A stretch of DNA of 64,000 nt. Origin: Styela clava. Lineage: Eukaryota. Below, piece by piece: positions 23,057 to 52,444 of this stretch. Each line of letters opens with the position of its first letter. Position 1 is the stretch's first letter. The position numbers and the translations under genes are program-made. The stretch covers positions 11,408,001-11,472,000 of the forward strand of contig NC_135254.1 in assembly GCF_964204865.1 (NCBI RefSeq), written 5' to 3'. The notes under the pieces were generated by a model. It did not search any database. It saw nothing but the letters and a program-made list of their open reading frames with translations, and was not told the origin of the DNA.

Positions 23057-26000
23057 CATAATCGTGTATATTATATGTGTGTAGTTCGGATTATATCGAA
23101 TACTATGGTGGAGTATATGGACCTAGTCCTAGATAATATATATATTTCTTCTCTCGGGGATCCACATACACAAAATTTCTTTTGTATGTTTATTTTTAAC
23201 GGATGACTTAAAATTATTGTTGGCATTCATTGTTATTATTTGGATATTTCCCCTATTTTCAAACAGTATTCAACCGTTTATCATACCACTAACTCTACAT
23301 AATATCGTCTTTCGAAGAGTTGTTTGTACGGACATGGTATACAGAAGTATATTAGTTAGCACGTGTTCTTTGTCTGGAAAACAGGATGCCAATCAATAGT
23401 GACTAACTAGTAACTATAATGTGTCACTTGTTTTTATACATCAGGGTATAATTTGCGCAATAATTGTTTTCGATTATGCTTGGCCCGTGGCGCTTAATCG
23501 CGTTACGACTCAAGTACGGCCGAAGGAAACGCGACGAAATGGGCGAATCCAGTGACTATACTTCAATAAACAGATCGAAAGACGTTTTTAATAGTGTGAA
23601 TCACCCACTCAGACAACGAGCAAGTTTTGTTAGACCCGAAGGACCCATGAATCATAGCTTTTCATTAATTTCCCCATGTTTTTCAAGTCTCACTTTTAAA
23701 GCGACGCAACTGGCCATCATGGCAGCTATCACGTTTCCATGACAACTACAAAAGTCAATCCCAAAATGAAGTCGTGAATCACCACCTCAGAATCAAAATA
23801 ATAGTCTATATTTGGGAAGTTTAAGAGTGTACTATTTATAAATGTTTGCAGTAGTTTTGTTTTAGGTGGCTCTATAAACAAGCTGTCTTGGAGCTACAAC
23901 ATAAAAATAAGATGCCATCTATTTGAATCCTTGGTTGACATGCGACTCTCGGCCATTCCAGATTCGTGTGCGCCCCAATAAACAATGAATATATATAGGG
24001 TCTGACATCTTCACACCCTCTATACACGATTCTTGGCCTAATGACATGCTCTACTATCATCCTCTTGTTTTCATTTGACACATTACTGAAAAATGATCAT
24101 CGAGTTTGAGTACTTCTATACTCAACAAATTGCCATGTATAAATAATTGGATGAATTGAACGACCTCCCACTGCGAATTATTGTCTTTCTTTGTTCCCTT
24201 TAACTGAAGCGGCGAATCTAAACCACAAAAGCGTCATCGGTTTATTTGTTTGTTTGATTTCAAATTTACCTTAATTTTATGCTAACCGTGAAATTGGTTC
24301 TCATAAACACATTGGAAAGTACCGTTCGTCGATTCTTACGAAATTGTAAAGAGGACTTAATAACGGAAAAATAGGCTAGACGGTTCTATTATGTTAGAGT
24401 CGCGTTGAGGCCTAAACAGACTTATTTTATGACTACCTTTTCACCGTAAATAAGCACAATATGACAATATTGCTTGTTGATCAACAGATTCACAGTCTGA
24501 AACGAAGAAATCGTCTACTGTACAAGCAAATCATGTCTGTAAATTTAAATAATAAATGTCAAAATTTATAATTTGCATCGAGATTATTCAATTTTAATGG
24601 TTTGGTATACGGGGACTGCCTGATTTCAGCAAACAAAATAGGCGCCAATGAACAACTCATATATAATCCACATTTATTTGTTCTAAACGAAAAAAATAAG
24701 GACAAGTGATTTTGTCATTGACATATTATAACCACAAGTCCGTAGTTATTATTCAGTCGTGTTCATTAATCAAGTATGTCTGGTGATCGAAGTTCACCGG
24801 AGAAATAGTCTGCCACCCCGCACTTGGATCCACAATTTTTTCTCGCTATCTTATCTTTTCAAAAAGTTCTCCCATGAGGTCCAGACTGTAAGCACTTGAC
24901 TACACAGGTGGAGGCAACTCGAGTGTTCTTGAACGATGATCGAAAATAAGCAAACAATGAGGGTTTTCCCAAACACATCATTGTGTGAGTTTGTAGTCCG
25001 GATTTGATTGAATATACTTGTAATAATATATAGAGATGAATCACACTTTTAATATATACCATCTCATTAAGTTTGTAACTCTTGGTATGTGCATGTATTT
25101 TACTCTGCCTATTCTCGATCAGTAATTCTTGAACGTATGAAGTGTTATAACATTGCTATCTGCATTTTTATCGCCCGCCTTTTTATGTATATGTAGGATG
25201 TTTCGTGCATAAACCTTTGAAATCTAAAATTTTTTTACAGCCTCAAATAAAACGAGAAGCCGTCAGATAAATAGAAAATGAACAATTTTTTTCACCTGAA
25301 GCAGAGCATACAGAATTTCAGGAAGAGACAAGTCGGCACCTTCTAATCAAATCCACCTGTTTTAAATAATTTTGGCGGTTGTCATCATTTTCCTTTGCAC
25401 AATTTGAGATATTATGCATTCTCTACTATTTTAGCTACTATTTATTGTTTTCTTGCAAATGATGTGAACAGTCTCCGTATTGTTTGTTGAAGTTTCCAGC
25501 CTGGCTTAAGTTCGGAGGTAAAATACACCGAAACTGTTCTTCCTTACCACTACTGTTAGCTTGGAGTAGGGATATATTGCCAAAATCGTCATCTGAATGG
25601 TGTCTCACATATATATGTACAGAGTGACTAAAAAAGTACGAAGTATGGCCAGAATCACTTGCGATGTTGTTATCCCGCAGAATGAAGTAACTAACTCTTG
25701 AAGTAACTTACGTTTGAAAAAATAAGAATACAGTATTGTTTGTATCTCTTCTGTAGGAACGGCTCATGAGGAAAGTTATTCTATGACAACTGAGACTGAA
25801 TAGTCCTTAATACTTATATATAATACTTAAATTGGATCTATATAAGTAAATGGTAAATCAGGAATTAGCGAACAGTATTAATGCACACTTTAGTACCAAC
25901 AGAAAAGTGTAATTTTGTTATTAATGAGAAGCCGATTGAGCATTTTAAATTGATATAGAAATTTAAAAACGGGGTCTGCTTCCAAATCATATATTACGTT

Positions 26001-26483
26001 GTGAAAAAATCTTTGCAATTACGGACAAAAAACATAGTAACTATATTAATAATACTAGAAAATTGTTTTTACGATAATAAAAATACTTTTACAGTGGCAG
26101 TTAATTAAAAGATAAAACACTACTCGTGCGCTTGAGTGAAATATTAAAAAAAAAGGATATAGAGTAACAGTCAGGAATAAGGATATATATATGGTTTCAA
26201 TCGCAACTCGGCATGTCATTCACAAATCCGACTCTAGGCAACATCAATTTAAACTCTATGCTCGAAAAGATCTCTGTCCACTAAAACAAAATTTGATCAT
26301 GAACTTGAATTTTGGCAGCAGCAAATCATATCCTATGTTAGGTGAAGGTTGGAACAACCGCCATAAATACAAGTTTGAAATTTAGAATCTGAGTTTGAAA
26401 CCGTGGTACAGGTTGCTTGGTTTTAAACTACCAGGGTCAGCTAATTTTCAGAATACACATTAAGTAAAACTTCTGTCATATTT

Positions 26484-29400
26484 TCAATGAGAGTCTAAAT
26501 TTCTTCTTCTGCTTTGAGGGCTGAGTCTGGAGTTTGATCGTTGGGATAAATTCGAAGCTTCTCGTGAAACCGGCCGAAGACTACTTCTTGATGAAGGTCG
26601 CGATAGCTTGAGATCATACGTATCTTTATCTTTGTATCCTTGTACATATCCGTGTTCGGTTGGATCATAGGACTGCAAGTCTTCAACTCCTAACCCTCGA
26701 CCCTCCTCATCGAATCTATCCAATTATAAATCGATTTTCAATGAGTAACGGGATATGACTTATATTCAAGCTATATTGCATGTTGCTCGACGCAAGGTCC
26801 TGAGCTCTCAAATAAACGAAGAAATTAAAAAAAAAATTATGATGGAAAGCAAAGAGCAACCAATGACTACAGCAGTATACAAATCAAGTTCACATTAGAA
26901 AAGAATTAGGGTTTATAGCTAGCTATATTGCATGTTACTATAAGCAAGATCCTATAGGTTCTCAAATTAATGGAAAAACTGAAAGAAAAATCGGGATAGG
27001 AAGCAAAAAGCAACCAACGACTGCAGGAGTGTAAATTTGTTTTTGCTCTAGAGCAGTTGCGAAGTTAACACTGGCATGGATTCATTCAATTGAAGGTTTT
27101 ATGAGGCGTTTTCACATCTTCACTTCGAAGTGTATGTAGGCTAAAACAGCTACTAATACGTAAGATTATATTATTTTAGGGGGAGATAGAATTTTTCAAG
27201 ATCAAATCCCACCTCATTTTATGTCCAGCTGGGTAAAGTGAGTGATCTGTCATTCGTCCCACGTTTCCGGTTTTTGAAATACCCTTAAAAACGTTTTGTG
27301 TTGAAAAGAAAAGTCAAACTATAGCATAATATTGGATTAAGTTATCCAATCGATATCCAATAGTTTCGATGACGAAATCTTGACCAAATTCACATTACGA
27401 TTTATATTATAAATACATGATGGATATTGTATGATTTGAAACCGACTGCATTAATAGATTGCAACATTTACCGACATTCACAGATAACAGTCTGGCCTGC
27501 CCTGCTTGAGTAAAATTACGAGGCATAAAAGGTAAGGGAGTCAGCAGGTGTCTATTGTGAAAGAAAATCGAGACAAGAATGAAGCTTGAATAAGTGACAA
27601 CCGTTAAAATTGGTAAAAGTTCTCAACTAATGGAAAGACTGGTAAATAAAGGTAAAATCCGTGAATTTATATTGAAATCTATCTCACTGTTATTCCAACA
27701 TATTCTGGGGCTTTTCCAATTACGTTTTCAAACACTTTCCTTCTGCGATTTTTGTCATCTGTTATCGCTTTATATTTTCGATCTGCAATTTCTTCCAAGC
27801 ATTTTACAAACATATCGAAGTCAATCAGTCTTTGGCCTTTGGGTCTGTATGAATTGAGGAAGATATTATATAGAAATAGAATCGATTGTTACTGAGACCA
27901 GGACGTCGACTCGAGAAAGTCAAATTTTGATGATAAACACTTATGCATATGCAATCCCTCTTTACAAAACGTTAAGGGCGCTTAGAAGGCATAATACTTC
28001 TTGAGTTTATGTAGAAAATTTTACTTTTTATTATCATTAAAGGTCCAAACTCCCAAAGCTGAGAAATTCTGAATTTTGACACAGACTCCAATGAAAACCA
28101 CCAACTCCACAGCCCTGTCTACGCAAAGCTTTTCACCATTTCGCCATTCACTTCAGTAGACATTTCTAGTTCAGAACAGTCAGTAAGGCAAAGCTTACAA
28201 TATCAATATGTGGAGAATGACCCAAACAACAGAACCCATAAAGTTCTGACTTACTTCTATGAAAGCAAAGAAGGACCTATACAACTTCGTCATAACTTTG
28301 TGTTTTCATATATACGAACTAATCATATCAATAGCAGAATGGGAATGTTGGATTTAAAAAAAACGGTAGATCAACTTACTTGTGTCTCGAAAATATGACA
28401 TCTACGTCTCCAGTCAATATAGTTCGGTTATCAACAAAATCACAATCTCGACATAATTTTGCCCAATTTTTGTTGTTCATCTCACGTCCTTCACTGTTTA
28501 CTTCACCGTAACTTAAAACATTGGACTTGAGTTAGCACAATTAGAACGCGGAAAGAACACGCAAAATCATCACAGCACGGAGTATTTTATTTTTTATAAG
28601 AAAGCATAATGCAATGACGGGAGACAGGCCAAGCCGCGCTTATTCTGCTAAGTTCCAATTATTGCTAAACTTTCAAAACCTTTCATAAAACACACTGTTT
28701 TCATACTATTTATGTTATGGTTCCCACATTCGCGAGGTTCCATCCAGGCACCCATTGTTGTTTAAGGAATTGGTAGACAGGGTCACAGCTAATTGGTAGA
28801 CAGGGTCACAGCTATGGAATTGATCAATAATGTCTGTAAACTTACATTTGGGGAAAATGTACATTGAAATAGTCAGTATATTGTCGGTCCAATTCATCGC
28901 GAAAGCAAACAATGTTTTCCAAAAATACTAAATATTTACACACCGGGCAAATCTGAAGAATGCATCTTCTAACGTTTCCATTATAGGATCAGGTTCCGAA
29001 CGAGGCCTCGGACTTCCACTCCGTGATGGTGTAGGTGATTTTCTTTTACTCTTAGGCGAACCACTGGTTTCGATTCTGAAAATCATGAACAATCTTCCAT
29101 AAAAGAGGTTTCTAAACTTTTCAAACACACGTTCAAGAGAAAATTTTATCTTTGTAGCATTCAATTTCAACAGGAACAAGTTTTATCACATTTGCATAAT
29201 CAATGTGATAGTGAATTTTTTTGTACATAAGAAAATGCAGATTCGCTCATTTTATGTCAAGTTCTGAATGCGCGTATGCAGATATGAAGTAATGTTTAAG
29301 ATAATTAATTGATTGACATTTCGCGACGTACGTTTTAGAAAGCATTGCTAGACTGAGTATTGGTAGTGGCCATTTCATCGTTCGCTAGTTAAGAGCAACC

Positions 29401-29542
29401 CTAATCCTCCGGGTGTTTTGCAGAATGTGTAAATAGGATAGATGAACTTTTCAAAGTTAGTGCGCACCTTTAGTCGTCACCAATGAACAAGCATTAATGC
29501 TGTCAAATCTTACCTTGGTGTAGTCATTGATAAAGTTGCCAT
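26484..29542 (-). CDS. TPPP: Tubulin polymerization-promoting protein (p25-alpha domain), core ORF ~250 aa from MATLSMTTPR
   Basis: Exons 29514-29553 (ATG at 29542), 28944-29075, 28380-28511, 27688-27844, 27213-27283, 26484-26715 join in frame. They give LEDAFFRFARYGEVNSEGREMNNKNWAKLCRDCDFVDNRTILTGDVDVIFSRHK..IDFDMFVKCLEEIADRKY..GKAPEYVGIT..GRMTDHSLYPAGHKMRFDEEGRGLG..GYVQGYKDKDTYD, colinear with the TPPP p25-alpha domain. Confidence 0.92.
26770..27035. repeat. Diverged tandem duplication in the last TPPP intron
   Basis: GCTATATTGCATGTT..AAGCAAA(G/A)AGCAACCAA(T/C)GACT occurs twice. Confidence 0.7.
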
Positions 29543-30538
29543 CTTCACAGTGTCTGTAAACAAACAAAAAACGAACTGAGTTTCAGTTCTGTTTCCATTA
29601 AATATGACCTAATACATTTTGGTCCCGCCATCACTGCTTTTTCGAAAATATTGTCTCTGAAGTAAAAAAGATCTTATCCGTTGGAAAATAACGACTTTAT
29701 TCAACTACGTTAGCGTTTTTATATTCTTACATATATATATTCTATTTTGAAGCTTGATAACATCTGCATTTTAAGTTTAAGAGTATCCACTCGACAACTC
29801 ACAAGAGAAAACCAATTTAACGTTGAGATGCAAGTAATCAATGGGAGTGGGAGCCATTTCAAGAAAATTTAAATACCGTAGTTATACGGAATAACAACGA
29901 TGGTGGTAATTAGAAAATATTTGGTCGCAATGTACATGATACATTCACGCCCCATGAGTTTGGCTTCTTTTAGCAAGTGCAGTTTCAAGTATTTTGTGGC
30001 GTCTAGAGCTGCCGCATAATCATTAACCATAGCGGGATTTCCAAACCATGGCCGCTATGACCAAACTCACGGTGACTGACTTTATAGCTGCCACAAACCA
30101 ATAGCGAGCTGCCGTCGTTACGGCAGCAAATCGAATGCTGTTCAATCAATTTTGCTGCCGTAACCACGGTATGTCGGCTGTAATAGCATGGCTGCCCCTG
30201 ATGGTGATAAATATTGGGTAAGTTGGAATGCTTTTCTTATGAATACAGTTTTGATGTATTTGGGGTCAGGTTTAGGTTAGAGTAGATATAATTTTGTATG
30301 ATAAACTGAAAAATATTGTATGACTTTGTAAATATACCGGTAATAGCGCGATAAAACCATGGCAAGAGACGCCGCGGTACGTTCGTGGCAGGAGCTGCCA
30401 TGAAGTGGTTAGAACTGCGCCTCTCCTTCATGGTTCAGATGGGTATTGTTATGAATTGAAGGACGTGGAAATGGCTGGGAGAATGCTTATCATTAAATTT
30501 TAGATACAAATTATACGTATCAATGGATCATAACTTAC

Positions 30539-33500
30539 ATTCAACGACATCCACGGGATCTTTGTTTTCTGTGCTTTGACTATTTATTATTAATTGTTCA
30601 GATTGAGTTTCGCCATTTGTTCTTACATTTTGTTGATTTGGTCTCGAGTCCAGAATTTCAGATGTTCCGGCAGTCCTTACATTAGCTGGGTGTACAATTT
30701 TCGAAAAACAAAATTGGTCAAAAGTAATTGCAGCAAATAAAACTGTCATGTTCGCATCCGAATGTTAACCCTGTACACATTTTGATTAAAATTCTGCTCG
30801 CTGAAGATTCAATAGTTTCATATCGTTCTCTGAATGTGGGCAAATATCGACTGTTACTGAACTTGAATTTCCATTTAAAAACGTCCGGCGCACAATAATC
30901 TTCGGCGCTTATTCGATATCAGGTGAAATTCGGGTATGTGCAATTTTTAGAATCGAATTCAAGCTAAAAGACTATCGTTCATTTCTTGCCGTTAGGAGTT
31001 TAGAGAATTTTAACGAATTTTCCCTATCTGGCGCCTCGATCGGTTTCACCATTCGATTTTAGAAATAAAAAATGACAACATATGGTAGCACAATTTGCCT
31101 TTGAGGCAAATCAGATGACGATCGTAACCACTATCCTACTACTGACTTTAAACGGAATAAGTCTTACAAATAAATTTTTAAAAAATACATTCCCAGTGTA
31201 TGACATAAATATATTTAACAGAGAAACTACTGCATATGGTAAACTACAAGCGGTATCCTACTGCAATATTACGAAAGCATATAGGCTATCAAACCAACTA
31301 TGTTTAGCTACACAACTCAACTACGACATGTATAAAGTTAATGTCAAGAAAAAGGATTTAGATGATGGCTTCTACCCAGGCAAGCACAGATCAGTAAATG
31401 TTTTTATGATTTGCACGGGAAACGCAAAATATTTTAATGTATCTATTTACAAGACGATCTACGCGCTACGACTAGATCTACGGAACTACTGGCAACTTCG
31501 GTTCAATAGATTCTTGCAAGTCATCTTTTCGTCTTCAACCTGAATCATAAAGTGTTTTCATAACAACTTAGCAAATAAATATACATGTGAAATTCGTCAC
31601 CCCATAGTTGTTTCTCTTACCAATCGATTCTAAACTGATTTCAAGTTTCCGGTCAATTGACATTTCCTAGCGTGTAATGCACCAGTATATTTCTATAAGG
31701 TATCAGCAGCTCTAGATATTTCAGTCGAAGCCCGTAAGTTTGCTCGGAGATGAGTTTTCTTTACCTCTGAATGAGTGCGCTCGACATTTCTTTGAGCAAA
31801 TTCTCTTAACACTTAATGTTGCGAGAAGCCATCTTCTCTGAACAAGGATACGCGAGGGATAAAACATAGGCAAAATAGTTAACTAGTTCCTAGCCTAGCT
31901 TAACTAGTTCAAACTTGAATATCGTACCTGGATTTGGCACGTTGCCACTTTCTTCCTCAAGTAAAGAAGATAAACTAACGTTTGATGGACTCCGTACTTC
32001 ACCTTGGTGCGATACTTTTACATCTTTTTCAATGTCAGAATCGAAATCGTTTTCAGAATCCGTATTTGCTACGGGTGCATCGAAACCCGTAAATCGATTC
32101 GCATCTGTGTTTGCTGTATTGTATTGTTTCCTGTTACTTAGACTCGACAAATAGGGTGATGCCCTCAAGTGGTCAGTATTGTTATACGGCGTTGATAATG
32201 TGATATCGTCTGATTTATTTGGTGATAATAATTCATTTGTATGTTGTTGACGTGAATCAGTGTTTTTATATCCACCTGACGTTGGGAATATCGCTGAGGA
32301 TGTTTTGGTATCTGAACTGCCAGACCTGAAAGAAAGTAACAGAGAATTGGTCAAATATTAGATGCGTTAACAGTGAAGTGAAAACAAAAGAAGCAGTATA
32401 CCTTCCATGCGTGGGTGCCGCAATTGGAGCGTTAACTCCCTGTGTGTATTTCGGAGTTATTGTAAAACTTGGATTTTGCTTGATATTGCCGCTGTCTGCA
32501 ACATAAAAGAAGTACAAGAAACAATAAGTATCATGATTATTTTATAATATTTTAACACGATAATTGCAAGTCGGGTTAAAGTGATGAGATATCAATGCCC
32601 TAATAATTTGTTTTATAACACACGATATTGGAAAGGTTTTGAATTGGTATTACTATTGCTAACAATAGTCCACTTCCGGAGGCTTGGGGTAATTCAAGGT
32701 GGTCAGGTCATTACCTTCCAGCCACTGAAGTACGTCAGTTAAATACAACAATCTCCATTTTCACGGTATAAATATAAAGAAGGTGTGGACATGAAGATAT
32801 AGACATCAATCCCAAACACACAATTGCGATATTGTGTTTTTTGATGTGATGGGTTAATTATTTTTATTTTAAAAGATCGTCATTTTATTTAATCAAACTT
32901 TGAAACAAAGCATAATATTTAGGGGTATTGGAACTTAGTAGTACTTGACCCAAATTATTTCTCGAGGTAATGACGTACTTTTCAAACAGGAACGTTTAAA
33001 GATACATAAATGTAACAGTCTATGTTTAGTACTATGAATGCCCAAGTTTGTAGTTCAAAAATTTTACTTTTTTTTTCGAAATTAATTGGAATAAAGACTA
33101 CATTTTAATCCCATGTACCTCTCGTGAAATTATAGCACTCTCAAGCAGTGATGAGCTAGAAAAATCGTAACAACCGGAACGCACCAAATTCGTGAAAATG
33201 TAAAATATATTTACAACGTGACGCTACCGGTAATTTTGTCTGTCGTGAGATAGAGCCGAAGAACTACAATGAAATATGAAAAAAATATCCGAAATATGAC
33301 TGTTTGAAATTGGAAGAATATTCATACTAATTCAATACAAATGTTATTATTAGATAGATATTGAATGAATTTTCACGGGGGTCAAAGGTCGGCAAAACAT
33401 CCATTACACGTTACTGCTGTGCGCTAATTATTTGCCAGCTGTAATGGAAAATAATTTTGATGCATCAAAACATCAATCAATAACTAAGTTTCCCGCAGAA

Positions 33501-33816
33501 ACTAGACTTTTCGAACCATAATTTTACAGAAACGCAAACGCAATATAATGTCCAACAACCGGAACAGCGTTCCGTTCGTGACTGCTACAGCTCATCACTG
33601 CTCTCAAGTCAAGATAGATTATTGAAGCAATCAGTTTATACCATTACTAATCGAGCGTTTATACAATAATCACTACTCACCCTTGTTTTGTTTTAAAGGG
33701 TCTGTGGTCCCGTTTGATATCCCTGTATTTTCTGTAATGTTGTTCCGATCTTTTGCCTTATGATTGGGATCAACACCCACGGTTGCAGCACGATTAGACG
33801 AGCAACAGCTTCCCAT
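30539..33816 (-). CDS. Upstream coding exons encoding an MGSCCS-initiated, low-complexity/disordered segment; either an N-terminal extension of TPPP or a separate short ORF
   Basis: CCACCATGG start context at 33816. Exons 33681-33816, 32402-32495, 31928-32325, 30539-30685 have GT-AG ends and compatible phases, and can join the TPPP exon 29514-29553 to give 512 aa. Confidence 0.65.
33146..33600. mobile_element. hAT-like MITE in the first intron of the MGSCCS/TPPP locus
   Basis: TIR CAGTGATGAGCT / AGCTCATCACTG with a perfect 8-bp TSD CTCTCAAG. Confidence 0.88.
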
Positions 33817-33919
33817 GGTGGTAAATTTAGGTTTATATATTACAAGCAGTAATTAATCTATATCATCATTTTAACGAAACCTACTCGATCAAACAACATA
33901 AAGACGCATTGCCTCAATC

Positions 33920-34190
33920 ACAATGTAGTCTGTACGTTCCCTTGAAAGTTAGGCTAAAACTGAGTTTCGCAATAGCTGTAAAAATTTAGGCCTTGACCTT
34001 ATCATTCTGAATTTGAGATCTCCCGCAAAGAGTTATAAGTCCCCATTACAATGTAGTCTGCACTTCCTTGGTCTAGCCTGAAAGTTAATCGATAAAATTA
34101 GGCATACACCTGGGTTTCGCGATAGCTGTAAAAGTTTAAGTTTATTGACATTATTATTCTGAATTTGAGATCTCTCACAAAGAGTTATTA
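33920..34190. repeat. Diverged tandem duplication (~130 bp x2) just upstream of the MGSCCS start exon
   Basis: ACAATGTAGTCTG..TTTCGC(A/G)ATAGCTGTAAAA..ATTCTGAATTTGAGATCTC..CAAAGAGTTAT occurs twice. Confidence 0.8.
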
Positions 34191-34579
34191 AAGGCGCTAC
34201 CCATACAGAAAATCGACAAAATCAACACGATAAATATTCTCACAAATCCTTTCGCTCAATAATTTCTCAATAACACGCAATAATGTTTTTGCCGTTGTTA
34301 CGTCGTTGCCAACAATTGAGGAGATCGGAATCAATGCGGTAGTAAAACCAAGGATTTCGCTCGCTCGCTTTTGTTGACACAACTAATTCTCGGTCGTTGA
34401 TAAGAGTCATACGACAAATACTGTACCTTGCTCGGTACACAGAGGCTCGAGTTAAATGTACTTTGTGCGTGTAATTTGCGGTACGTCATGTTGTTAAACT
34501 CCTATTATCGCACAAAACCAATTCAAATTTGTCTGGTTGTTGGGGGCGCAGCGTATGTATTTCTAGATTGAAATATACG

Positions 34580-34945
34580 AGTTAGGAACTTATATTTATC
34601 ATGGGGAGATGAAACCGACCTAAACAAATGGCGAACCACGGCCTTTCTCGGGCATCATATTTCGAATAACTGGAAAGCCAATTGCCCGAACTACTCTATT
34701 CCATACCAAATAAGTACATGTAGAGTGTAGACTGCAACAATTGCGCACAATGAAGAAACCCCACACCAAGATATCCTCAAAATCGGTATGAAATTTAATA
34801 TAAACGGAAGTATAACAAAAAATATGTTGCAAATAACTTTTAGCATAGGCACCAGCATCACACAAGAAAAAATAAATTTCAATTTCTGGCACCAGGGCCA
34901 GTCGGCTTGGCTCCTCGGTTCCATCCCTCACACTGCCAGATTCTG
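34580..34945 (-). mobile_element. SINE/LINE-tail-related element sharing its 3' end with the SINE at 59835
   Basis: Minus strand reads GAGAAAGGCCGTGGTTCGCCAT..GTCGGTTTCATCTCCCCATGATAAATATAAGTTCCTAAC, versus GAGAGGCCGTGGTTCGCCAT..ATCGGCTTTCCTCTCCCCCGGGATAAATATGTAAATCCTATC in the SINE. The upstream part differs and the 5' boundary is approximate. Confidence 0.65.
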
Positions 34946-35514
34946 GTAAGGTAGAAAAAAATAAAGAAATGTTGCAGCTGGAAGAAATATATAAATTTAA
35001 ACGAAATCATGGCAGTTTCACGCACATATGCATTCAAAAGAAGTAATTTAAATAACAATCAACATTAGAATAATACGACCAACGGTCGTTATTTTCTATT
35101 AAACAATAAGATGTTTATAAATTATTTTCTGGCACAGTATGGTACATCTTCAAATTGCGTGAACTGTTACGTAAATTCTGCCATAAATGCAATTAATACC
35201 ATTGAATAAAATAAGTTCACAAATTACCCAAAAACTCCAAAATATATTTATTCAAACTATACCTTTTTTTTTATGAAATATCATTTTTGCACTGCATTCC
35301 ATTAGTCTGAATAACCGAAACTGTTCTAATAGATCAAATCTTTACCATTTAAAAATTCGAATTAACTCAAATCCAAAAATCATTGAAAACATGTAGACAT
35401 ATCAGTATTCTGAACATTTTAATGCAAAATATTATTTTAATCAGTTTCGGTTCTAATCAAATTTACAGCACACTTATATTTTATGTCAATTCAGTATCGA
35501 ATTGCAACATTTTT

Positions 35515-38500
35515 TTAAACAATAAAGGCGCCTGGATTACTGGAAATTGCAGCAATACATTCATGCAACAGATTTTTAACTGTTTCTAACTGTTGAAATC
35601 CAGTTTTTAATCTTTCCATCATTTCACCGGATGAAACAATACTTTTGCTAAGTTCTTTATAAGAGTTAGTAAGAGGTCGGATGTTGCAATCAATAGAAAA
35701 AGCTTGTATAGTTGTCCACAGTGTGTGTAGTAAATCAGCAAAAATAATATCACATTCTGTATCAGTCTTTGGCAATGTCAGGATACTAGAAATAATAAAT
35801 AACATTTATTATTTAAATCCGATTAATTTACAATTGACCTTGAAAATATTTGGAACTGGGAAAACATCAGTAAAGAGTCAACAAGATGTCAGCTACCCTT
35901 CAACTCGAAAAGTCTACAAAATTGAGGAAATATTGATGTGACATCCAAGTATTCCAATAAAAATTATATATACATATACACATTTCAAAACCTTACATAA
36001 TATTACAAAATTATTGTACCCAATAGTTCTTTAAGTGTTTTGAGTTATAAATTATTGTATTATAATATTACATCAGTTAAGCATGAAACTGTAAATATGA
36101 CTGTCATATAGATATTGCACATTCCATATTCTATAATGTAGTGATTTTCAGTATATTATATATTTCACATCATTTTATACAAATCTCATTTAAAATCATC
36201 TTTCGAATACAAAAAAATTTTTCATACTAACAAGTTTAAAATCAATACCCAGTTTCATTGAACAAGAAAATCTAAAAATGATGGTGATATATGTAAAACA
36301 ACTTTTACCTTTGCAGAGAGAATTGCAAACTCTGTACAAGATCAGCAACGAGAGGCAGAGCTCGAGCAGCAACAGTTTTTTCAGGTATTGTGTCAAAGGT
36401 TGCAGACAAAGCTTGACATATTTCAGGAGCATCATTCATATGTGATGGTAAAAAACTAAGACTTTGAAAGATCATTCCACAATGAGAAATAATTGCAGTC
36501 CATATCTGTAGGAAAAAGATCAGAGAATGCAAACAGACACTTTGGGATATATTTTGCGTCACGAACAATCATATCACTGCACGTGTATGAAGTTTTAGTA
36601 TAACTACATGATGTACAAATAATCGAAAAGTATTATCAAATTGTTCTGAAAAGTATAATGTGTTGAAATTTGGACAAAATCCTCAACCTGCACATTCTTT
36701 AATTTTATGTTGGTAATGCTTAGCCAACTTTTTGAATTTCTATCAAAAATATAACTTAGTTTAGAATTTGAAGTTTGAAATTTAACTTCAGTTCGGACTC
36801 TGCTTCCAACTCCAATATCAATAAGAATATGTCGAACTGGTTCTAAGGTTCCAATATTTCATGTATACAATCACACAAAGTGGTAACGAATTCCGGCCTT
36901 TTGATTCACTACATGAACCAGCTATCAGTCACCTCTATCGATGATAATATTTCTCCATACAAATAAGAATTTACCATATTCAAGGCAGACCAAAAATCAA
37001 TAGAATTAGTTTCAACAGTTTCCATTTCAACATTGTGGTCTTCCTTGTGATGTTTTACATCTTCAGAATAATTTATTTTTCTCTTCTTGAGGGATTTGTG
37101 AAGATTCTTGACAATAGAATAATTGAAAAAATTACACATTAATTGGATTGAAATTACATGTTTAAATACCATCGCAACAGATATTTACATAAACTGTTGA
37201 TGATGGCAATCAGGAGCTGTGTTATTCATGGTATCTATCACACACCAACTAGTCAGTAACCGTGCCCCTTTATGCTTGAGCAGACTAACTTTCAAATTAA
37301 CAATTTGTTCATCTTTTCAATATGAATAAATCATTCAGTAACTTTTACCTGTAACTGTAGCAAGTCGTTTTTCACAGGCTCATCGTATTTTCCTCTTAAA
37401 TTAATGCCTGAAACAAGACTGAGGGCACTTCCTGACCAATCAGAGACAAAATTGATATCTTCTGATTTGTTATCAGAATAAGAACGCTGCATATCAAGAA
37501 GTTTTTCTACATGCACTTGTAGAATATGATCAACACCCATCACTTTAAAAACAGCTAGCCAATGCTTTCGTACACAGTGTAGAACATCTGATAATGAAAA
37601 CAAAAGAGATGGATAGGAGTAGAACTTTAACCGAACCAAATACCGAATTGAGCAAAATTAGTAGATGTGATGGTTCAGTGCAGGGGTGTGCAACCTGTGG
37701 CCCGCGGGCCAAATGCGGCCCATAAGAAAAACTTGTGCGGGTGGCGGAGAAGTGCCTATTTTCATTGGTGTGCGGCCCGTAAAACGTGTTTTTAATTTAG
37801 TTTAATCTGGTATGTGTGAGTAATTTCAATCACTTTGGGTTGAAAGGTCAAAATGTTTGTGCCGGCAACTACTAGAAAGCACCCAGGTATTTGTATCTGG
37901 CCATCATGTATTCAAGGTTGCACACCCCTGGTCTTGTGGCCTTCCAAAAGTAGTGTCTCTTCACATATCAGCAGATACCTATGAATACCTGTGTAAGTTC
38001 TTGCTCAGATTGAAATGCATGAAAAGTAGGCCACACATAAATCAGTTGACAGCAATGTTCCCTCTAATTTTTCGTAGTATGTGTGCGCAGAAATTTTGGT
38101 GTGTGCGCACTTTTTTGGAAATGACTAATATTTGTGCAAAAACCAATGGAGAAATTTTGGCGTTCTAACCGGGTAATGGGTGGGCCAACAACAAACTTTC
38201 TCAACCTGCCAATCGAGAACATTGTTACATTACCATCGAAATACGTCTGTGCGCAGTAAATCTATGCGTGTGCGCAGCCCCTGAAAGCTGTGTGCGCGCG
38301 CACACGCGCACACCTTAGAGGGAACACTGGTTGACAGCATAAAAAGTATAACAGCTTTATCTAACATTATACTGTTTCGTACTAACTACTAGTTGAGCTA
38401 TATTCACCAGTGACCATGAGTGAGAAAACACCAAAGTTACTTGCGAAGGCTCATTAGCAACCATGATAGGCATATTCAGAGCATTTCGTCTCACTCAAAT

Positions 38501-41500
38501 TTGTTTCAAAATTTCATTTTTCAGCCTATTGTCTTGAGATGATTAGTATTTTGAATTACAATTAACAAATCTTCGCAAATCAGTGTAAAAACAATTAAAA
38601 CAAAAATAAAAAAATTACCAGTCAATGTCCAAGGTGGTTTCCTTAATATAATATCCAACCACAAATCATCGAAAGCTTCTTTCATTTCCTTCTCCAAAAT
38701 AAATGTCAAGGCAGACAAAGCACGTGCACAAATTTTTTTATAAATATCTTTGCATTCAAGAGGAGATAATATTGACAATGATTCCGGTGAAACACTTTCA
38801 TCCTGCCTATTCTTCATCATTATTATTTTCTTCATTTCAGGTTCGGTAGATGATTTTAGCGATGCTGAATAAGAGTATCAGTATTTATATATCAGATTTG
38901 TACATATGGATAGGAAGAAAACGGAAAGGAGCACAAAACAGCATATTACTTACCGGAACTATTTTTCATTTTGGCAATGCTTTTATGAAGGTCTTTGACA
39001 TCGTTTATGCATCTAAAATTTATATAAAAAAACGTTAAAACTATATAAAATTACTTTGCTCGAAGTAGAAAAGGTCAAAAGCGCTTGACTAGAAGATAGA
39101 TAATGAGAAACATGCCAAGATTACTTCATCTACACGGGAGTGATGATAACTGAATATATATAAATGGGTACTCCCATAGTGTGTGTGTACCAGGTTAGGC
39201 CATAATTTTATTCTGATTTTCCTTATTTTAGTTCTATTTATAGTTCGGGGACTGTCTGAACAAAATTAGTTTTCCCCATATTGGTAGACACACTTCTGGA
39301 GCGCCTATAAGTGTATATTTGCAAGAAAAATACAAAGGAAAAAACTGGAAACATCACAAAAATACATACTGGTACAAATAAGCAAATTCGAATTACTATG
39401 CAAATTGATTGACTTATCATACCAAGTATGTCTATGGACTTGTCCATGTAATACTTATTATAAGACGAAATAAAATACTAGTATTCAGAAATAGTTTCTC
39501 ACATAATATGATTTGCCAATGCTTTGTTCATCAGGTTTTTATCGTGGGTAACCAACACTGTATTGTCATCATTGGATGACTGCTTCATTGAAAAGCAACA
39601 TTGAAGAATTCTATCATCATTGTTTTCAATATTAAATCCGTCTGAAATTTTTTTTTAGATACCGGTAATAGGTGCGGAATGTAGAAATTGAAAAAAAGTA
39701 CACTGCACTGTTAAATTTACATTAGATGCTGTGAAATATCAGGAGCTAAAAACTAAAATAGAGGTAAATGAAAACTATTTCTTGGTAATGAAGCATTCTA
39801 CATCCCCAGAATATATTAGGAATTTAGGAGTATCCATACTTCATATATAAATATTTATCTCAACGCTGTTAGAAATCTAATCTCCAAAGTGCCTAATTAT
39901 GGATGAATAAGCTAAAATATTTATCTGAAATCAATTTTAACGACTATGAGTGAAAAATCCCATTCCACTAAAACAGATTTTTGTTCATATATCTTGAATG
40001 AAAACTTCATTCTTACATATTTATCTGTATCCTTCAACCAAATTTCTGTATAATGGTTGCAAGACATGAATGGGGCAAAATGGCATGTTAAAATCAATAT
40101 TGCAATGAACCCACAATCAATCTAAACACAAAAGTAACCCACCAAATTGCATACCCAAAATTTGAATGTGAATTTGTCCTTCATAGTAGCTGATTTTTGA
40201 ATGAGACAATGAAGCAAGAATTGGCTGAAGTTTAATAATGTCAAGGGTTGTCGTCAGAGTACCTGAACCTAACTATGTTCGGGTCACATGTCGAATTTTT
40301 TGGATTCTAAAATTTTTTACCACAAGCATGTAATGAATTGGGTAGGTTATGCAGGACTGGAGAGATATCAGCGTCCAAAGATTGTAGCTCTCTGTATATC
40401 ACAGCCTAAAGCCTCGTTCAGACAAAGGTGCGAAACATACACAAACATACCTATTACAGTTGCAGCTTCAAATATAGTTTGTCCACGTACAATAGACTTA
40501 TTCGTTTGAAATTGTCTGAAATAAAACAAAACTAATTCATGAAATGTTATATTTATCTATGAATAGGAAGTCTTAGCAACTTACCTGTTTAAAAACGATA
40601 TTGCATTACGAGCAGCATTTTTATTTTTCTTGTGATGATCCAGCTCCTAAAAACAAATGAAATGTAGTTTTATATTTGTTTGAAAATAGGATCTTCCTAG
40701 TTGTCTACCTAGTAACTATATAAAATTGAGACCGAAAGTGGAAATGATACACCTGTACGCTGTGTGTACATTAATTATTTGAACATATCGAATGCATCGA
40801 TTCGGTTACCTTATTATATTAAATAGTAAACGAAGTTTACAGGTACTTGTTTGAGGTATAGTGAAATTAATTGGAACGGTAGGTAAGCCTACTCGCTTGC
40901 AGACTTATTTTTAACTGGAACTGAAAACCAGGCCACGACTAGTGCTGGGCCTTTTGAATTGAATATTCTAATCAAATAGTATATTATTCAAATCGCTCAG
41001 ACAAAAATATTGAATCACTCAATTTTCAATGTGAGGTCAAATTATTGAAATGCCTTTTTTTCTAGTGAGTTATTGAAGCAACATGTTTTTTATTGAGTGT
41101 GAACACGACGTGAACTGACTAAGTGATATATTCCATGTTTTCAGTTTTTTACATGGCAGAAGGATTCATTACAATAAAAAAATCACATACAATCACGTCA
41201 TTGCATCAATTAAAATATTTTCCTAGTAATTGAGATTCGGTACAAAATAAATATTCGATTTGATTCTGACATCAGATATTCGAAAATGCCCAGTCGTAAA
41301 CAAAACCCAGTGATTGTTGTTTATAAACTACCGGTATATTCCAACAGTTGTAGAATAGATACCTGTAGGACAACCCATGGAATAATTAATTTTGTTTTGT
41401 CAAGCTTTTGTGAACTTTCTCCAAACATTCTTCGCTCCACAAACATTTTTAGGAAATTTAAAGAAACGCCGCAAAGAAGAACGTTGGTATCAAGGATGAC

Positions 41501-43221
41501 AAACGATTGAACGGTCAAAAATTTCTGATTATCTGTTGTGAGAAAGTCAAAATTTTAATATATAGAAGGATATTGGAAGTTGTTAAATTCATTGCAGTCA
41601 TGAAGCTATATATTTATTGCTCAACAAAAGTATAACCTTTCCTAAGAAATCAACAATTCCCAGCTTCCCAATTATTGCATGTAGTGTATGAAATTTAATT
41701 TTGCTTCAGTGAAGATATCATTGAAAACTAAACAAATAAAATAATTTTTGAAGTCTATAACACCGAGCATTTTATACCGACTGAAATTATAGGAGGCAAT
41801 TAATCCAGTTTATAGAAAGCAGAAAGTTTGAATTCATTATTAAATAGTATTCATCACTTTTATTTCTACAGAGGAAAAAATAAACTACCTGTTTGAATAC
41901 AATGGTCATCAGAATTACTTGTTATTGAATTTGGAAGCTGAGGTGGTGATATGTTGAGGTCTAACATTTCAACATCTCGAATGCTGGTTTCAGTTGATTC
42001 ACAGTGTGAGGGGTTCTTGGTAATACCAGATGAATCCTCAATTGATTTTCTTTTGTCAACAAGCTCAAATTTTTCTGCATTTTTGGAATCCGACGTTTGA
42101 CATGCAGTACTTGATGAATCAAGACTCTTATTGAAATTTTTTTCTTGTTTTTTCTTTTTCGTGTATTTTTCCGACACCAAACTGATTGCACGTCTGTTAA
42201 TTGATGATTTAACTTCCGTTTTCAAATAGGGATGAAATTTTGTTGTTGAACTGGACACAGCATTAACTTGTTTATAAGATTTTGTCTCTTTTTTCTTCGA
42301 TGCATCTTGCATAGAAGATTGAACATCATTGTGCACCACTTTTTCATTCCTTTTTTTCTTTTTACCAGAACGTTTTCGACTCTTCGGCTGACTTTTTACT
42401 GAAAATATAGAGCATCTCAATTTGCTATAACCACTGTGAAATAAATATTGCCAAGAAAGAGCCTCCATAAAGAAATACCTCAATTTATGCACTGAAGTTT
42501 TCTAATAAAATGTTAAGAATTCGCTGCTGATTATTTGATACCAAAATTTGTAAGAGAGATAAACTTGAAAACCAAAATATATGTTACACCATAGAGAAAA
42601 ACTCAAATTAATGAGAGTGAATACATAAACAATTACAAAATTTTATCCTGAATATCCAATTGACACAATTGATAATGTAATGTCATTCACTGTATTAGCT
42701 TATAAATCGGCGCTCCAGAAGTACGTGTACCGATATGGAGGTAACTACCGTAATTTTGTTCGCCTATTTTACATCAAGTTGTGTAATGGAACTGAAACCT
42801 ATGGGCAGGCAGGGGGATATTCACTTGGCAAACATGGACAGTCCCCGAACTCGTAATAGAACTAAAATAAGGAAAATCGGAATAAATTATGTCCTAACCC
42901 TAACCTGGTACAAATACTACGGGAGTACCCATAAATCTTAATAAAATCACCACCTCAACTGGCAACACAGAGCATAAAGACACTTTGAAACACAACAGTA
43001 AATAAGGGAAAGCAAACATGGATTTCAATTTAAACAAAACCTTCAGCATATCCTGGATGCTCCCAAGTGCAACTTCCATCTGCAGTATTAAAAAAGTAAA
43101 CTCTGTTCTTATGTTTCTTTGAGAATTGTGCAATCCATTTATCAGGCAAGTCTTTCTGTACTTTAGTCAGAATTGAATCTTTTTCAGACTGGGTTAATTC
43201 TTTCTTCTTTTCATTACTCAT
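35515..43221 (-). CDS. SWT1: SWT1-like PIN-domain RNA endoribonuclease with N-terminal WW domain, ~770 aa, 12 predicted coding exons
   Basis: Phase-consistent GT-AG exons: 43041-43221, 41889-42398, 41363-41532, 40585-40646, 40451-40515, 39503-39641, 38954-39012, 38619-38864, 37349-37587, 36933-37106, 36309-36505, 35515-35785 (2313 nt). WW motif LPDKW..SKKHKNRVYFFNTADGSCTWEHP; PIN motifs VILDTNVLL, IIPWVVLQELD, VRGQ, NNDDRILQCC, LVTHDKNLMNKA; SWT1 C-terminal motif EKEMKEAFDDLWLDIILRKPPWTL..VLHCVRKHWLAVF. Confidence 0.9.
37681..37930. mobile_element. hAT (Charlie-like) MITE in a SWT1 intron
   Basis: 16-bp TIR CAGGGGTGTGCAACCT / AGGTTGCACACCCCTG with GCGGCCC subterminal motifs. The TSD is degenerate. 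A related left end occurs at ~20399. Confidence 0.85.
38053..38329. mobile_element. hAT-family MITE in a SWT1 intron
   Basis: TIRs CAATGTTCCCTCTAA / TTAGAGGGAACACTG with a perfect 8-bp TSD GTTGACAG on both sides. Confidence 0.9.
39167..39305 (-). mobile_element. Shorter inverted copy of the 42709 family
   Basis: GGTACTCCCATAGT..CACTTCTGGAGCGCC; flanks TATAAATG / TATAAGTG. Confidence 0.75.
42709..42929 (+). mobile_element. Non-autonomous DNA element with GG..CC ends, 8-bp TSD and internal CCTAACCCTAACC
   Basis: Imperfect TIRs GGCGCTCCAGAAGTA / TACTACGGGAGTACC; flanks TATAAATC / CATAAATC; shares its body with 39167-39305 and 15019-15210. Confidence 0.75.
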
Positions 43222-44461: not shown

Positions 44462-45376
44462 TTAACCACCACCGCGGCCCTTTTTCGAAGCGAAGCTTCT
44501 AATTTTCTGCCTGACATACTGTAAGTTTATCTCCGAGCCCTGTCTCCACTGTACCTTTTGCAGCTCATTTGGAAAATTTTCAGCTAAACCATTCGCATCA
44601 AGTGCTTGTTCAAAATATCTTTCCGCAGCATCCAGATCATCCTCTGCCATTCTGGCAAGACCAAGATTATGAAGCAAAGCAGAACAAATGAAAAAACGGT
44701 AAGCCCGCTGACCGAATTTATCTAACATTATTTTCAAAGCTCTATCATAAAAAGTTTCAGATTCTGCTTTCTGATCGTCAGATGAAAGAATCATTGCTAT
44801 GTTATTCATACAAATAACCTCAGTTTCTGTTCTTACTTCAGAATCAGCATCACATATTGTTCTCAAATTATCCAATCTTGAATGCATCATGCGCATGGCT
44901 ATTGATACTACTGTTGCAGGAAAATTAGGGCTATCAATAGTTCTAATTGCACTTTCACGAATCTTTCGAAAACATTCCATTATTCCAATTACTGCATCAT
45001 TAGGAGGAGAATCTAATTGGTGTAGTTTACATGCACAATTAAACAACAAGATTACTTGCAAATGAGAATTGTTTTGAAGATGTATATTAGCGAGCTCAAT
45101 CATATCATTGACGCCAACACGAGGTGCAGTTGTAATCAAATCAAGAGTTTTTGTAATCTCAAAATCATCATCATTTTTTAATATAGGAGAATGTATCCTT
45201 ATTAGACATTCACATATTCTTAATTGAGTTTTCAGTCTTACCCAAAAATTCGGTTTTAAAGTGAGTAGTTCTCGCAATATAGGCAAACTAGCCATAGGCC
45301 TTTGACCATTAAAAGCATAATCACATTTTTCTTGCAGGAATAATATTGTCTTTTCAGTACTATCAAGCGACGTCAT
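44462..45376 (-). CDS. Uncharacterised helical-repeat (TPR-like) protein, single coding exon, 304 aa
   Basis: Long ORF in AT-rich DNA. C-terminal TPR-like helices CMNNIAMILSSDDQKAESETFYDRALKI and LLHNLGLARMAEDDLDAAERYFEQALD. Splice acceptor tttaaatcag just upstream of the ATG. Confidence 0.8.
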   Translation of the reverse strand: MTSLDSTEKTILFLQEKCDYAFNGQRPMASLPILRELLTLKPNFWVRLKTQLRICECLIRIHSPILKNDDDFEITKTLDLITTAPRVGVNDMIELANIHLQNNSHLQVILLFNCACKLHQLDSPPNDAVIGIMECFRKIRESAIRTIDSPNFPATVVSIAMRMMHSRLDNLRTICDADSEVRTETEVICMNNIAMILSSDDQKAESETFYDRALKIMLDKFGQRAYRFFICSALLHNLGLARMAEDDLDAAERYFEQALDANGLAENFPNELQKVQWRQGSEINLQYVRQKIRSFASKKGRGGG

Positions 45377-46475
45377 GATACTGAACGCTGATTTAAAAAC
45401 ATGAATTCCTATACATTATAATAACCTATATTAAATATAACCTAGAGAAAAGAGAAAAAAGTAAAAAAGCATAATTCAGACAACATTTCAAATCCATTTG
45501 AAACGGCACATGATAATAAATGGCAAGAAAATAAAAGAAATAGCGAATAGGCAACCAGAACTAACATCCAGTCACCGAGAATAGTAGGGAACTGAAAAAA
45601 TAGCAAATTGTAAAAATAATGCAAACATTCTTTGAAATTATTTGAACAACTTCAAATTTAAATTGCAATTCAATATAAAACACAAATATTATAAATTATT
45701 CAAATATTTAGATTGAGCATCCAAAATATGGATGTATAAAGAAATGAGAGTACAATAATTTCATATCACAAAAAAAGAGCAATTTATCTGCAATTCAAAC
45801 TTATTCTTTCATTTTGCAAGCATTATGGAATGCAAAAGATGATACTTAACTTGTTGAAAAGCGAAAATACAATAGATGACCCAGCGCATCTTATTTAATG
45901 AAAGAAACAGGAATGGTGTCACAACATATTATTGAGTTTCATCGTCTTGAACCCACGTATTTATTTTTGAATGGAAACTAGATTGGAAGTGACCACTTGT
46001 CTGGAGTCTTCTTTTGAGCAAAAGTGTGGTACTTAAACAATAACATGTTCAAAATTTTTTCAGAGGATAATAAACTGTGAATGAATAGTCTAAATTCTTC
46101 ACAAAAAACATGTTTATAAGTTTTGAAACAAAAGTATCAAATCCAGCAATAATGGACTTGGCTACTGATTGTCATGTGTAAGCACTCATATAGTCATCTT
46201 ATTATTTATTCGCCATACATGGAAAGAGTAAAGAATTATAATTAATAAAATATTACACTTTACTGTCAATCACCAACTATTTTTTCAGCAGAGGAACAAA
46301 AACATAGGAGGAAATTTCAGCTTAAAAAATAATGCAGCTGTTAGATTAGGTGTAGCTAAGATTCTAACAATGCAAAACTAAAAGTCCAATTTCCAAAAAT
46401 GTAGTGTATCGTTTTCATGGAAAACCCTTGGCCTAATTACATTTTCAAAGAGAATTTGCTGAAACAGTGTCACAA

Positions 46476-46868
46476 AAAGAGACTCACATCTAGAGGAAAG
46501 AGACTCGCATCTAGAGGAAAGAGACTCGCATCTAGAGGAAAGAGACTCGCATCTAGAGGAAAGAGACTCGCATCTAGAGGAAAGAGACTCGCATCTAGAG
46601 GAAAGAGACTCACATCTAGAGGAAAGAGACTCACATCTAGAGGAAAGAGACTCACATCTAGAGGAAAGAGACTCACATCTAGAGGAAAGAGACTCACATC
46701 TAGAGGAAAGAGACTCACATCTAGAGGAAAGAGACTCACATCTAGAGGAAAGAGACTCACATCTAGAGGAAAGAGACTCACATCTAGAGGAAAGAGACTC
46801 ACATCTAGAGGAAAGAGACTCACATCTAGAGGAAAGAGACTCACATCTAGAGGAAAGAGACTCGCATC
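46476..46868. repeat. 21-bp minisatellite AAAGAGACTC(A/G)CATCTAGAGG, ~18.7 copies
   Basis: Direct reading; only the A/G position varies (1 A, 5 G, 12 A, then a partial G copy). Confidence 0.98.
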
Positions 46869-47701
46869 CAAAGGAACAGCTACTGAAACCAGATAGATTT
46901 GTATTAATGCATAATACAGCTAGATGTGTATTTAGAAATGGCATCATATTTAATAAACAAGCGCAAAACTGTATGTCGAATTCCCATGTTACATAAGCAA
47001 GCATTTGTTAAGCAAAGAAAAAACAATATGAAATATACTCAACAGGATGAAAATAAAATTAATAGCCCATGAAACCTAGTGATCTGATAGACATAACAAA
47101 GATAAAAAGGGCCATACAACCACTCAACAAAATTTGAATTACGTAGTTTCCTCTGCAATTGATGATATGAAGAGCACTTAATAATGGATTTGTTGTTACA
47201 TGATGATCTATCGAAAATAACTACCGTAATTTCAATTCGATAGGAAATGTGCGTATCGTATATGAATACATAAAATTTCAATAAATCTAAAGGCCTTCAT
47301 AATATGTACATTTAGAAATTAATCAAAATCAAATAATAGTACAATCCATATCCTTTGAATTAAATGCAGACATACAGAATTAGTATGAGTTTTGAGCAGA
47401 ATACAAAAAGATGAAAACAAAAAGGGATTTTCATAAATCTCAAGTTCATATGCGATCTACAATAGGCTACTGGAATTGAGCTATCAAGATGCAAATTTGT
47501 ACAGATAGGATGATGAGAATGCACCGACCCAAAGACACATACATAAACCTTTGATTAACAAATCCTACCTTTGTTATGAATTTTTGATTACGGTATATAT
47601 ATATTATAGAAATTCACTTTCAGATTATTGCTACTTTCAGCAATAAAAATAGAAAATAACAAACACAGACACCTGTGGATCGATTGCAAGTGACATTATT
47701 T

Positions 47702-48637: not shown

Positions 48638-52444
<3,807 letters not shown>

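Follow-up and report, generated by a model that had tools for sequence, protein, structure and literature searches.

Gene structure, encoded protein and transcripts

The window analysed here, a stretch of 64,000 nucleotides of the Styela clava genome (contig NC_135254.1, positions 11,408,001 to 11,472,000), was found to contain on its minus strand a gene of 10 exons for a long TPPP-like protein with a putative lipid-anchor signal at its N-terminus. The gene runs from 33816 to 26484, all nine introns are GT-AG, and the coding sequence (CDS) of 1539 nt specifies 512 amino acids (aa) and a stop codon. The product (P0001) matches letter for letter the Styela clava RefSeq protein XP_039269969.2, "uncharacterized protein LOC120344723". 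The gene is confirmed as real, as is the in-frame joining of ten GT-AG exons into 512 aa proposed in a preliminary description of this DNA, and the sequence had previously been deposited in RefSeq without a name.

The protein begins MGSCCSSN, with the start ATG preceded by ...TTTACCACC. An in-frame stop is present at 33855-33853, 13 codons before this ATG, so M1 is the first in-frame ATG. Residues 9-300 are composed of 14% Ser, 11% Thr, 10% Asn, 8% Pro and 7% Asp, and are followed by a p25-alpha domain (PF05517) at residues 308-464, which covers model positions 1-152 of 153 (148.6 bits, E 2e-43). The MGSCCSSN start, the stretch of about 300 aa rich in S, T, N, D and P and the complete p25-alpha domain, all named in the preliminary description, were therefore recovered. 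In a Pfam search of the 512-aa protein at E up to 1, p25-alpha was the sole family matched, with no second domain. In the AlphaFold model (29-row alignment) the predicted local distance difference test (pLDDT) score is above 90 for residues 301-400, with block means of 39-51 for residues 1-280, and the N-terminal extension is accordingly predicted to be disordered. The top Foldseek matches of the model were TPPP3 (2jrf, E 5.6e-11) and mouse CGI-38 (1wlm), which have the helical p25-alpha fold. No transmembrane or signal segment was found in the 512-aa protein, the highest 19-residue hydropathy window being 0.56. The basic Ser-Pro-rich segment 272-299 has a net charge of +6 and the Arg/Ser tail 473-512 one of +7, and residues 140-262 of the spacer are acidic (net -10).

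Thirteen sequencing runs were found, nine of them guessed to be RNA, and six of these nine (X1, X2, X3, X5, X6, X8) and one of the four others (X10) were examined. The RNA status is a tool's guess that is not on record, and splicing across GT-AG introns was taken as the criterion. The transcript evidence consists of assembled unitigs, which are graph paths and not single molecules; junctions are those listed, and contig depths were not used for ranking isoforms. All nine junctions were seen in spliced contigs in four of four runs (X1, X3, X5 and X6, from three studies), including the two that the preliminary description had named for checking, 31928>30685 and 30539>29553. The former, which joins spacer to domain, was present in five of the six spliced runs (X1, X3, X5, X6 and X8). 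In X5 and X6 the joint between exons 1 and 2 appears with an offset of 2 bases. That between exons 6 and 7 spans a 2-letter allele difference beside the donor; a non-canonical joint at 28512/28947 was rejected, as it is the GT-AG intron 28943-28512 read over the allele difference. Record 21 of X8 (1872 nt) begins 6 nt before the ATG and spans exons 1-4, its loose end being exon 5, and record 15 of X6 (1674 nt) carries exon 3, exons 6-8 and exon 10 on one piece. The unspliced run X10 has continuous cover through the introns and none of these joints.

Exon 3 was also found spliced to an alternative acceptor (31928>31539) in three of the six runs (X1, X2 and X3), all from one study. Use of this acceptor leads to a stop at codon 211 and thus to a 210-aa translation with the leader and spacer and no p25-alpha domain. 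The contig of the 31539 exon stops near 31099 in X1, while in X2, where 31539 is the sole exon-3 exit listed, a contig is continuous over 31537-30539 and then enters exon 5. X5 has cover inside the long exon 4 and no 31539 junction listed, and for X6 and X8, from another study, the 512-aa form alone is found among the junctions listed. The 31539 form may represent a translated protein, a target of decay, or overlap with a downstream transcript starting at M263. This methionine in exon 5 lies in a context with a purine at -3 and G at +4, and the basic Ser-Pro stretch that follows it resembles the tail of TPPP1; 14 ATGs lie inside the long exon 4 upstream of 30685.

The features of the gene are as follows (window positions; (-), minus strand; UTR, untranslated region):
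33817..34320 (-): 5' UTR of some 500 nt, not spliced, containing 9 short upstream ATG frames; an X1 contig is continuous over 33681-34320
33681..33816 (-): exon 1 CDS, aa 1-46, predicted leader for N-myristoylation (G2, S6) and S-palmitoylation (C4, C5); single copy in the genome
32402..32495 (-): exon 2, aa 46-77, spacer; junctions in spliced contigs
31928..32325 (-): exon 3, aa 77-210, spacer; short conserved blocks IFP..GY at 89, RASP at 131 and FDSD at 171
30539..31539 (-): alternative long exon 4, 1001 nt, acceptor 31539; stop at codon 211 gives 210 aa without p25-alpha
30539..30685 (-): exon 4, short form, aa 210-259, acidic spacer; required for the 512-aa form
29514..29553 (-): exon 5, aa 259-272; contains M263, a possible internal start of a 250-aa TPPP
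28944..29075 (-): exon 6, aa 272-316, basic Ser-Pro-rich segment and first p25-alpha helix
28380..28511 (-): exon 7, aa 316-360, p25-alpha core; in spliced contigs
27688..27844 (-): exon 8, aa 360-412, p25-alpha core; in spliced contigs
27213..27283 (-): exon 9, aa 413-436, C-terminal part of p25-alpha; in spliced contigs
26484..26715 (-): exon 10 CDS, aa 436-512, degenerate GxGxG motif, end of p25-alpha, basic Arg/Ser tail and stop
25500..26483 (-): 3' UTR, at least about 1 kb; an X3 contig is continuous over 25500-26715

A repeat element lies in intron 4 (29973-30424); in each of the runs X1, X3, X5 and X6 it recurs in numerous contigs whose flanking sequences are unrelated. Further repeats in introns 1 and 3 are visible in run X10.

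Relatives and the N-terminal leader

The same genome encodes a canonical TPPP of 180 aa (G000:C17:327700-340281). The gene described here is a separate and divergent second paralogue, and in searches with exon 1 and exon 8 it was found to be single copy. Its relatives include a 631-aa protein of Ciona intestinalis (P0003, XP_078494081.1), the domain of which is 66-70% identical to that of Styela, and an ascidian-like locus (L009/L010) whose domain has introns at the same four places and of whose spacer at least 240 residues lie on the contig. Three JGI proteins of 385-397 aa (P0010, P0162, P0163) also have long spacers, and further relatives are the fragments P0036, P0059 and P0112, the tail of P0059 being 72% identical.

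A quick tree was built from 105 of 164 profile hits, selected for covering the greater part of the domain and freed of 5 near-copies, and a careful tree from 32 chosen rows. In both, P0001, P0003, L009, P0010, P0162 and P0163 form one clade with full support (100/100), and in the careful tree its stem branch is long, at 0.74 changes per column. Forcing the JGI trio to group with the canonical gene was rejected (approximately unbiased test, p 0.0003), and of 33 residues that are diagnostic of the ascidian proteins the trio has 12, compared with 0-4 in each of 26 other TPPPs. No vertebrate sequence was found inside the clade among the tree rows tested. Sixteen columns conserved in canonical TPPPs are altered in all three ascidian proteins. 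A metagenome scan (three loci from 366 pattern matches) yielded no DNA for the JGI trio, and one of its loci, L011, was set aside as an unrelated EF-hand/p25-alpha protein. The P0010 fold predicted with a 4-row alignment was of low quality, with a mean pLDDT of 36, and was not used. A third, divergent p25-alpha-like gene was also observed at G000:C17 ~347100-349700 (plus strand, in L008), where it follows the canonical TPPP in tandem at a distance of about 7 kb; it had been missed by the Pfam genome search.

By domain and fold the protein belongs to the TPPP-like superfamily and is not an orthologue of the canonical animal TPPP. In common with long-type TPPPs (TPPP1/p25, TPPP3/p20; PF05517) it has a full-length p25-alpha as its sole recognised domain, a helical fold (2jrf, 1wlm) and basic disordered flanks, and basic segments flank the domain in P0001, P0003 and P0010 alike. 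It differs in its length (512 aa against ~170-220), in the N-terminal extension of about 300 residues with a predicted dual-acylation signal, in its separate clade and in the alternative splice that removes p25-alpha. The GxGxGxxGR motif, given as a feature of long-type TPPPs in the accessible text of PMC3498115, is incomplete in the Styela protein. Two intron positions are held in common with the canonical Styela gene, whereas two others in the domain are common to this gene and L009 and are not found in the canonical one. Apicomplexan apicortin likewise has a p25-alpha-related sequence with a long disordered N-terminal region, but it combines a partial p25-alpha with DCX, whereas here the domain is whole and there is no DCX match; the available part of PMC10304595 mentions no acylation of apicortin.

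The long spacer is kept in six of six clade members. Its length ranges from ~195 to ~425 residues across orthologues, which argues against a strut of fixed distance. Three short blocks of the Styela spacer (at 89, 131 and 171) recur in the same order in Ciona (84, 142 and 179) with weak similarity. Overall, the similarity between the Styela and Ciona spacers is weak: 0 of 500 shuffles equalled it when a two-sequence profile was used, but 24 of 300 and 5 of 300 did so in pairwise comparisons; the corresponding counts were 7 of 500 for P0010 (residues 9-190) and 0 of 500 for P0163, all with composition correction off. The spacers of P0003 (residues 236-370) and L009 (294-2288) contain motifs of the VGTD/IGTD/TQT type in repeated form, together with a basic stretch and a DACVGTD block common to both, none of which is present in Styela. 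We take these motifs to resemble sites for dynein light chain LC8.

The N-terminal sequence was found to have counterparts, with MGSCCSS at the start of P0044 and MGNGCSS in P0010, P0162 and P0163, which suggests that the acylation signal is conserved at least among these relatives. P0044, a Logan sequence of 254 aa, shares 48% identity with residues 1-199 and lacks p25-alpha; it might represent either a truncated frame or the counterpart of the short form in a different species. Among the best 150 of 863 matches, 141 begin with Met, six fit the myristoylation pattern and three also have an early Cys (P0001, P0010 and P0044). As 7 of 1630 other open ATGs in the window fit this pattern plus Cys, the motif by itself was not counted as evidence, and its weight comes from the true start and from conservation. 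The features of an SH4-type leader were found, namely MGxxxS/T at the true N-terminus, early cysteines (C4, C5) and no signal or transmembrane segment. By analogy, the protein is predicted to be N-myristoylated at Gly2 and S-palmitoylated at Cys4/Cys5. The identical MGSCCS hexapeptide is described as S-acylated and needed for plasma-membrane binding in the plant CDPKs OsCPK2/ZmCPK9 (accessible text of PMC7152618), and the SH4 anchor of yeast Vac8 is defined by MGxxxS/T plus Cys (available part of PMC3308974). These proteins are unrelated to the present one and the resemblance is a convergent short motif.

Other features of the window

A multi-exon gene lies upstream on the same strand (~34774-42501, minus); its contigs extend to 34774, which leaves some 450 nt to the 5' end of the TPPP-like gene. 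One of its exons has a PIN-like, perhaps SWT1-like, "VILDTNV" stretch, and its single exons gave no Pfam match. Further along are a 317-aa single-frame protein with TPR repeats (44462-45415, minus) and a tandem array with a 21-bp unit in which several frames are kept open (~46470-46900). An IRE1-like gene at 48638-52444 (minus), with a PQQ-like lumenal part, kinase and Ribonuc_2-5A, consists of a single frame of 1268 aa, is apparently intronless and is the genome's best match to its family. Ribonuc_2-5A (KEN) gave 42 matches over many contigs (C1, C3, C6, C8 and others), many in clustered open frames of 370-515 aa, and judging from sequence these matches appear to represent an expansion of IRE1/RNase L-like nuclease domains.

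Proposed function and significance

We consider the 512-aa paralogue a likely membrane-to-microtubule linker, with a probability of roughly 0.5. The joined transcript, its p25-alpha domain, the placement in a clade, the start shared with relatives and the second acceptor were all observed; the mechanism that we propose has four parts and draws on known biochemistry. Met1 would be removed, Gly2 myristoylated and Cys4/Cys5 then S-acylated, which would fix the N-terminus to a membrane, be it plasma, Golgi or ciliary. About 260 neutral-to-acidic residues would act as a flexible tether with a contour of ~94 nm and a coil radius that a scaling law puts at ~5 nm. Tubulin would be bound by the basic segment 272-299 and by the 473-512 tail, likewise basic, in the manner of human TPPP/p25, which contacts microtubules through its basic disordered ends and not its core (accessible text of PMC4542545). 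Finally, acceptor 31539 would switch the link off by giving either a 210-aa anchor-only protein or nonsense-mediated decay. The basic flanks of the domain together with the acidic residues 140-262 fit an arrangement of anchor, non-binding spacer and microtubule-binding head.

By analogy, the closest working counterpart would be MAP6/MAP6d1, which is non-homologous. MAP6/STOP and MAP6d1/SL21 are microtubule binders with N-terminal palmitoylated cysteines that direct them to the Golgi and plasma membrane (available part of PMC4272302). They differ in that the Styela protein has no MAP6-type Pfam match, an added Gly2 myristoylation site and p25-alpha as its microtubule module. TPPP at the Golgi outposts of oligodendrocytes also resides at a membrane organelle, where it nucleates microtubules; the mammalian protein is not described as lipid-anchored in the accessible text of PMC12047068, whereas here the anchor would be built in.

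Several observations weigh against the linker. Residues 411-472 have a net charge of -3, compared with +3 in canonical TPPPs, and GxGxGxxGR is reduced to GxGxG, with the final GR lost, in P0001, P0003 and L009 and is absent altogether from P0010, P0162 and P0163. Junction 31928>30685 is absent among those listed for X2. The stems of the JGI trio and of the ascidian proteins are both long, and some long-branch pull is possible. The association of an MGxCCS-like leader with TPPP in relatives, which the preliminary description had singled out for checking, holds for three distant orthologues, in which an MG..C-S start accompanies the same p25-alpha subtype. In Ciona the RefSeq model (P0003) lacks an initial MG, its first 40 residues possibly being a mis-called 5' end, and the contig of L009 ends before the first exon, so the link between leader and domain is seen in two lineages only. 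As to the lipid-anchored tether envisaged at the outset, for example in cilia or flagella, its general form is favoured by the transcript that joins leader, spacer and p25-alpha and by the starts of the three distant orthologues; for the ciliary or flagellar siting no direct evidence was found, and nothing was found pointing specifically to cilia. The tie of the family to cilia is phylogenetic (accessible parts of PMC12731214 and PMC3499766) and applies equally to the canonical gene. The preliminary description had not mentioned that this is a second paralogue beside a canonical TPPP, that GxGxGxxGR is degenerate, or that an alternative acceptor leads to a form lacking p25-alpha.

Other explanations of the locus were considered. 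It is highly improbable that the upstream exons belong to another gene and that the fusion is a prediction artefact, the sole remaining point in its favour being that unitigs are graph paths; it was rejected on the basis of junction-spanning contigs in five runs from three studies and the independent RefSeq model, and the orthologues are contiguous as well. Somewhat less remote, though still improbable, is a locus that mainly yields two proteins, a 210-aa acylated disordered one and a TPPP1-like one of ~250 aa from M263, with the 512-aa join being minor. The alternative acceptor in X1, X2 and X3 would fit this, particularly in X2 with its sole exon-3 exit and its contig reaching exon 5, as would the start context of M263, the TPPP1-like basic Ser-Pro tail that follows it and the ending of P0044 without a p25-alpha domain. 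However, the joined form occurs in five of the six spliced runs and is the sole form listed for X6 and X8, the ends listed at exon 4 or 5 include neither a separate 5' end nor one left loose by trans-splicing, the 14 ATGs of the long exon precede 30685, and the JGI orthologues are single frames running from MG to the domain.

The p25-alpha domain of this paralogue may no longer bind tubulin, leaving a membrane-bound scaffold or phospho-substrate with other partners. The long stem branch, the 16 altered columns, the degenerate or missing GxGxGxxGR and the presence of a canonical paralogue for the old job speak for this, but we judge it rather unlikely, since p25-alpha is complete, with 66-70% identity between the Styela and Ciona sequences, and the basic flanks, by which human TPPP is described as binding microtubules, are retained. 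A somewhat stronger contender, still in the minority, is that the lipid anchor does not act as a load-bearing tether but tags the protein for trafficking or sequestration, serving for carriage on vesicles or to a compartment, or for parking at a membrane until depalmitoylation frees the protein to reach microtubules. Against this, Gly2 myristoylation is irreversible, so some membrane affinity would persist, and a long spacer with short conserved blocks, kept in all six clade members, exceeds the needs of a simple tag. On the other hand, the variable spacer length does not suit a fixed-distance strut, and palmitoylated MAP6d1 is described at the Golgi and plasma membrane, away from microtubules (accessible text of PMC4272302).

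No acylated TPPP turned up among the papers listed in literature searches with mostly open-access coverage; the supplements of the Orosz surveys may list these accessions. The term "myristoyl" is absent from the accessible text of the surveys PMC3498115, PMC12731214 and PMC10304595, and "palmitoyl" from that of the review PMC12047068. Ciona and tunicates are absent from the available parts of PMC3498115 and PMC12731214, "Ciona" in PMC10304595 being a parasite's name. One survey of the family classifies TPPPs by domain length and trims N-termini before analysis (available part of PMC12731214).

The finding is still a lineage-limited variation on two known modules, with MAP6 as an analogue. TPPPs are described as small microtubule bundlers, and a conserved, acylated paralogue with a long spacer would, if the linker is real, be a TPPP with its own membrane anchor. 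Tentatively, it is possible that a so far undescribed TPPP subfamily of ascidians and at least one distant marine lineage forms lipid-anchored membrane-microtubule linkers with a splice switch, one acceptor giving the full tether and the other an anchor-only decoy that in particular tissues unhooks microtubules from the membrane. The splice switch would then be a natural on/off control. Mammalian TPPP works at Golgi outposts, and the paralogue would offer a simple test of how TPPP activity gets placed at membranes, with a candidate membrane-microtubule linker in Ciona, an organism in which such tests are routine.

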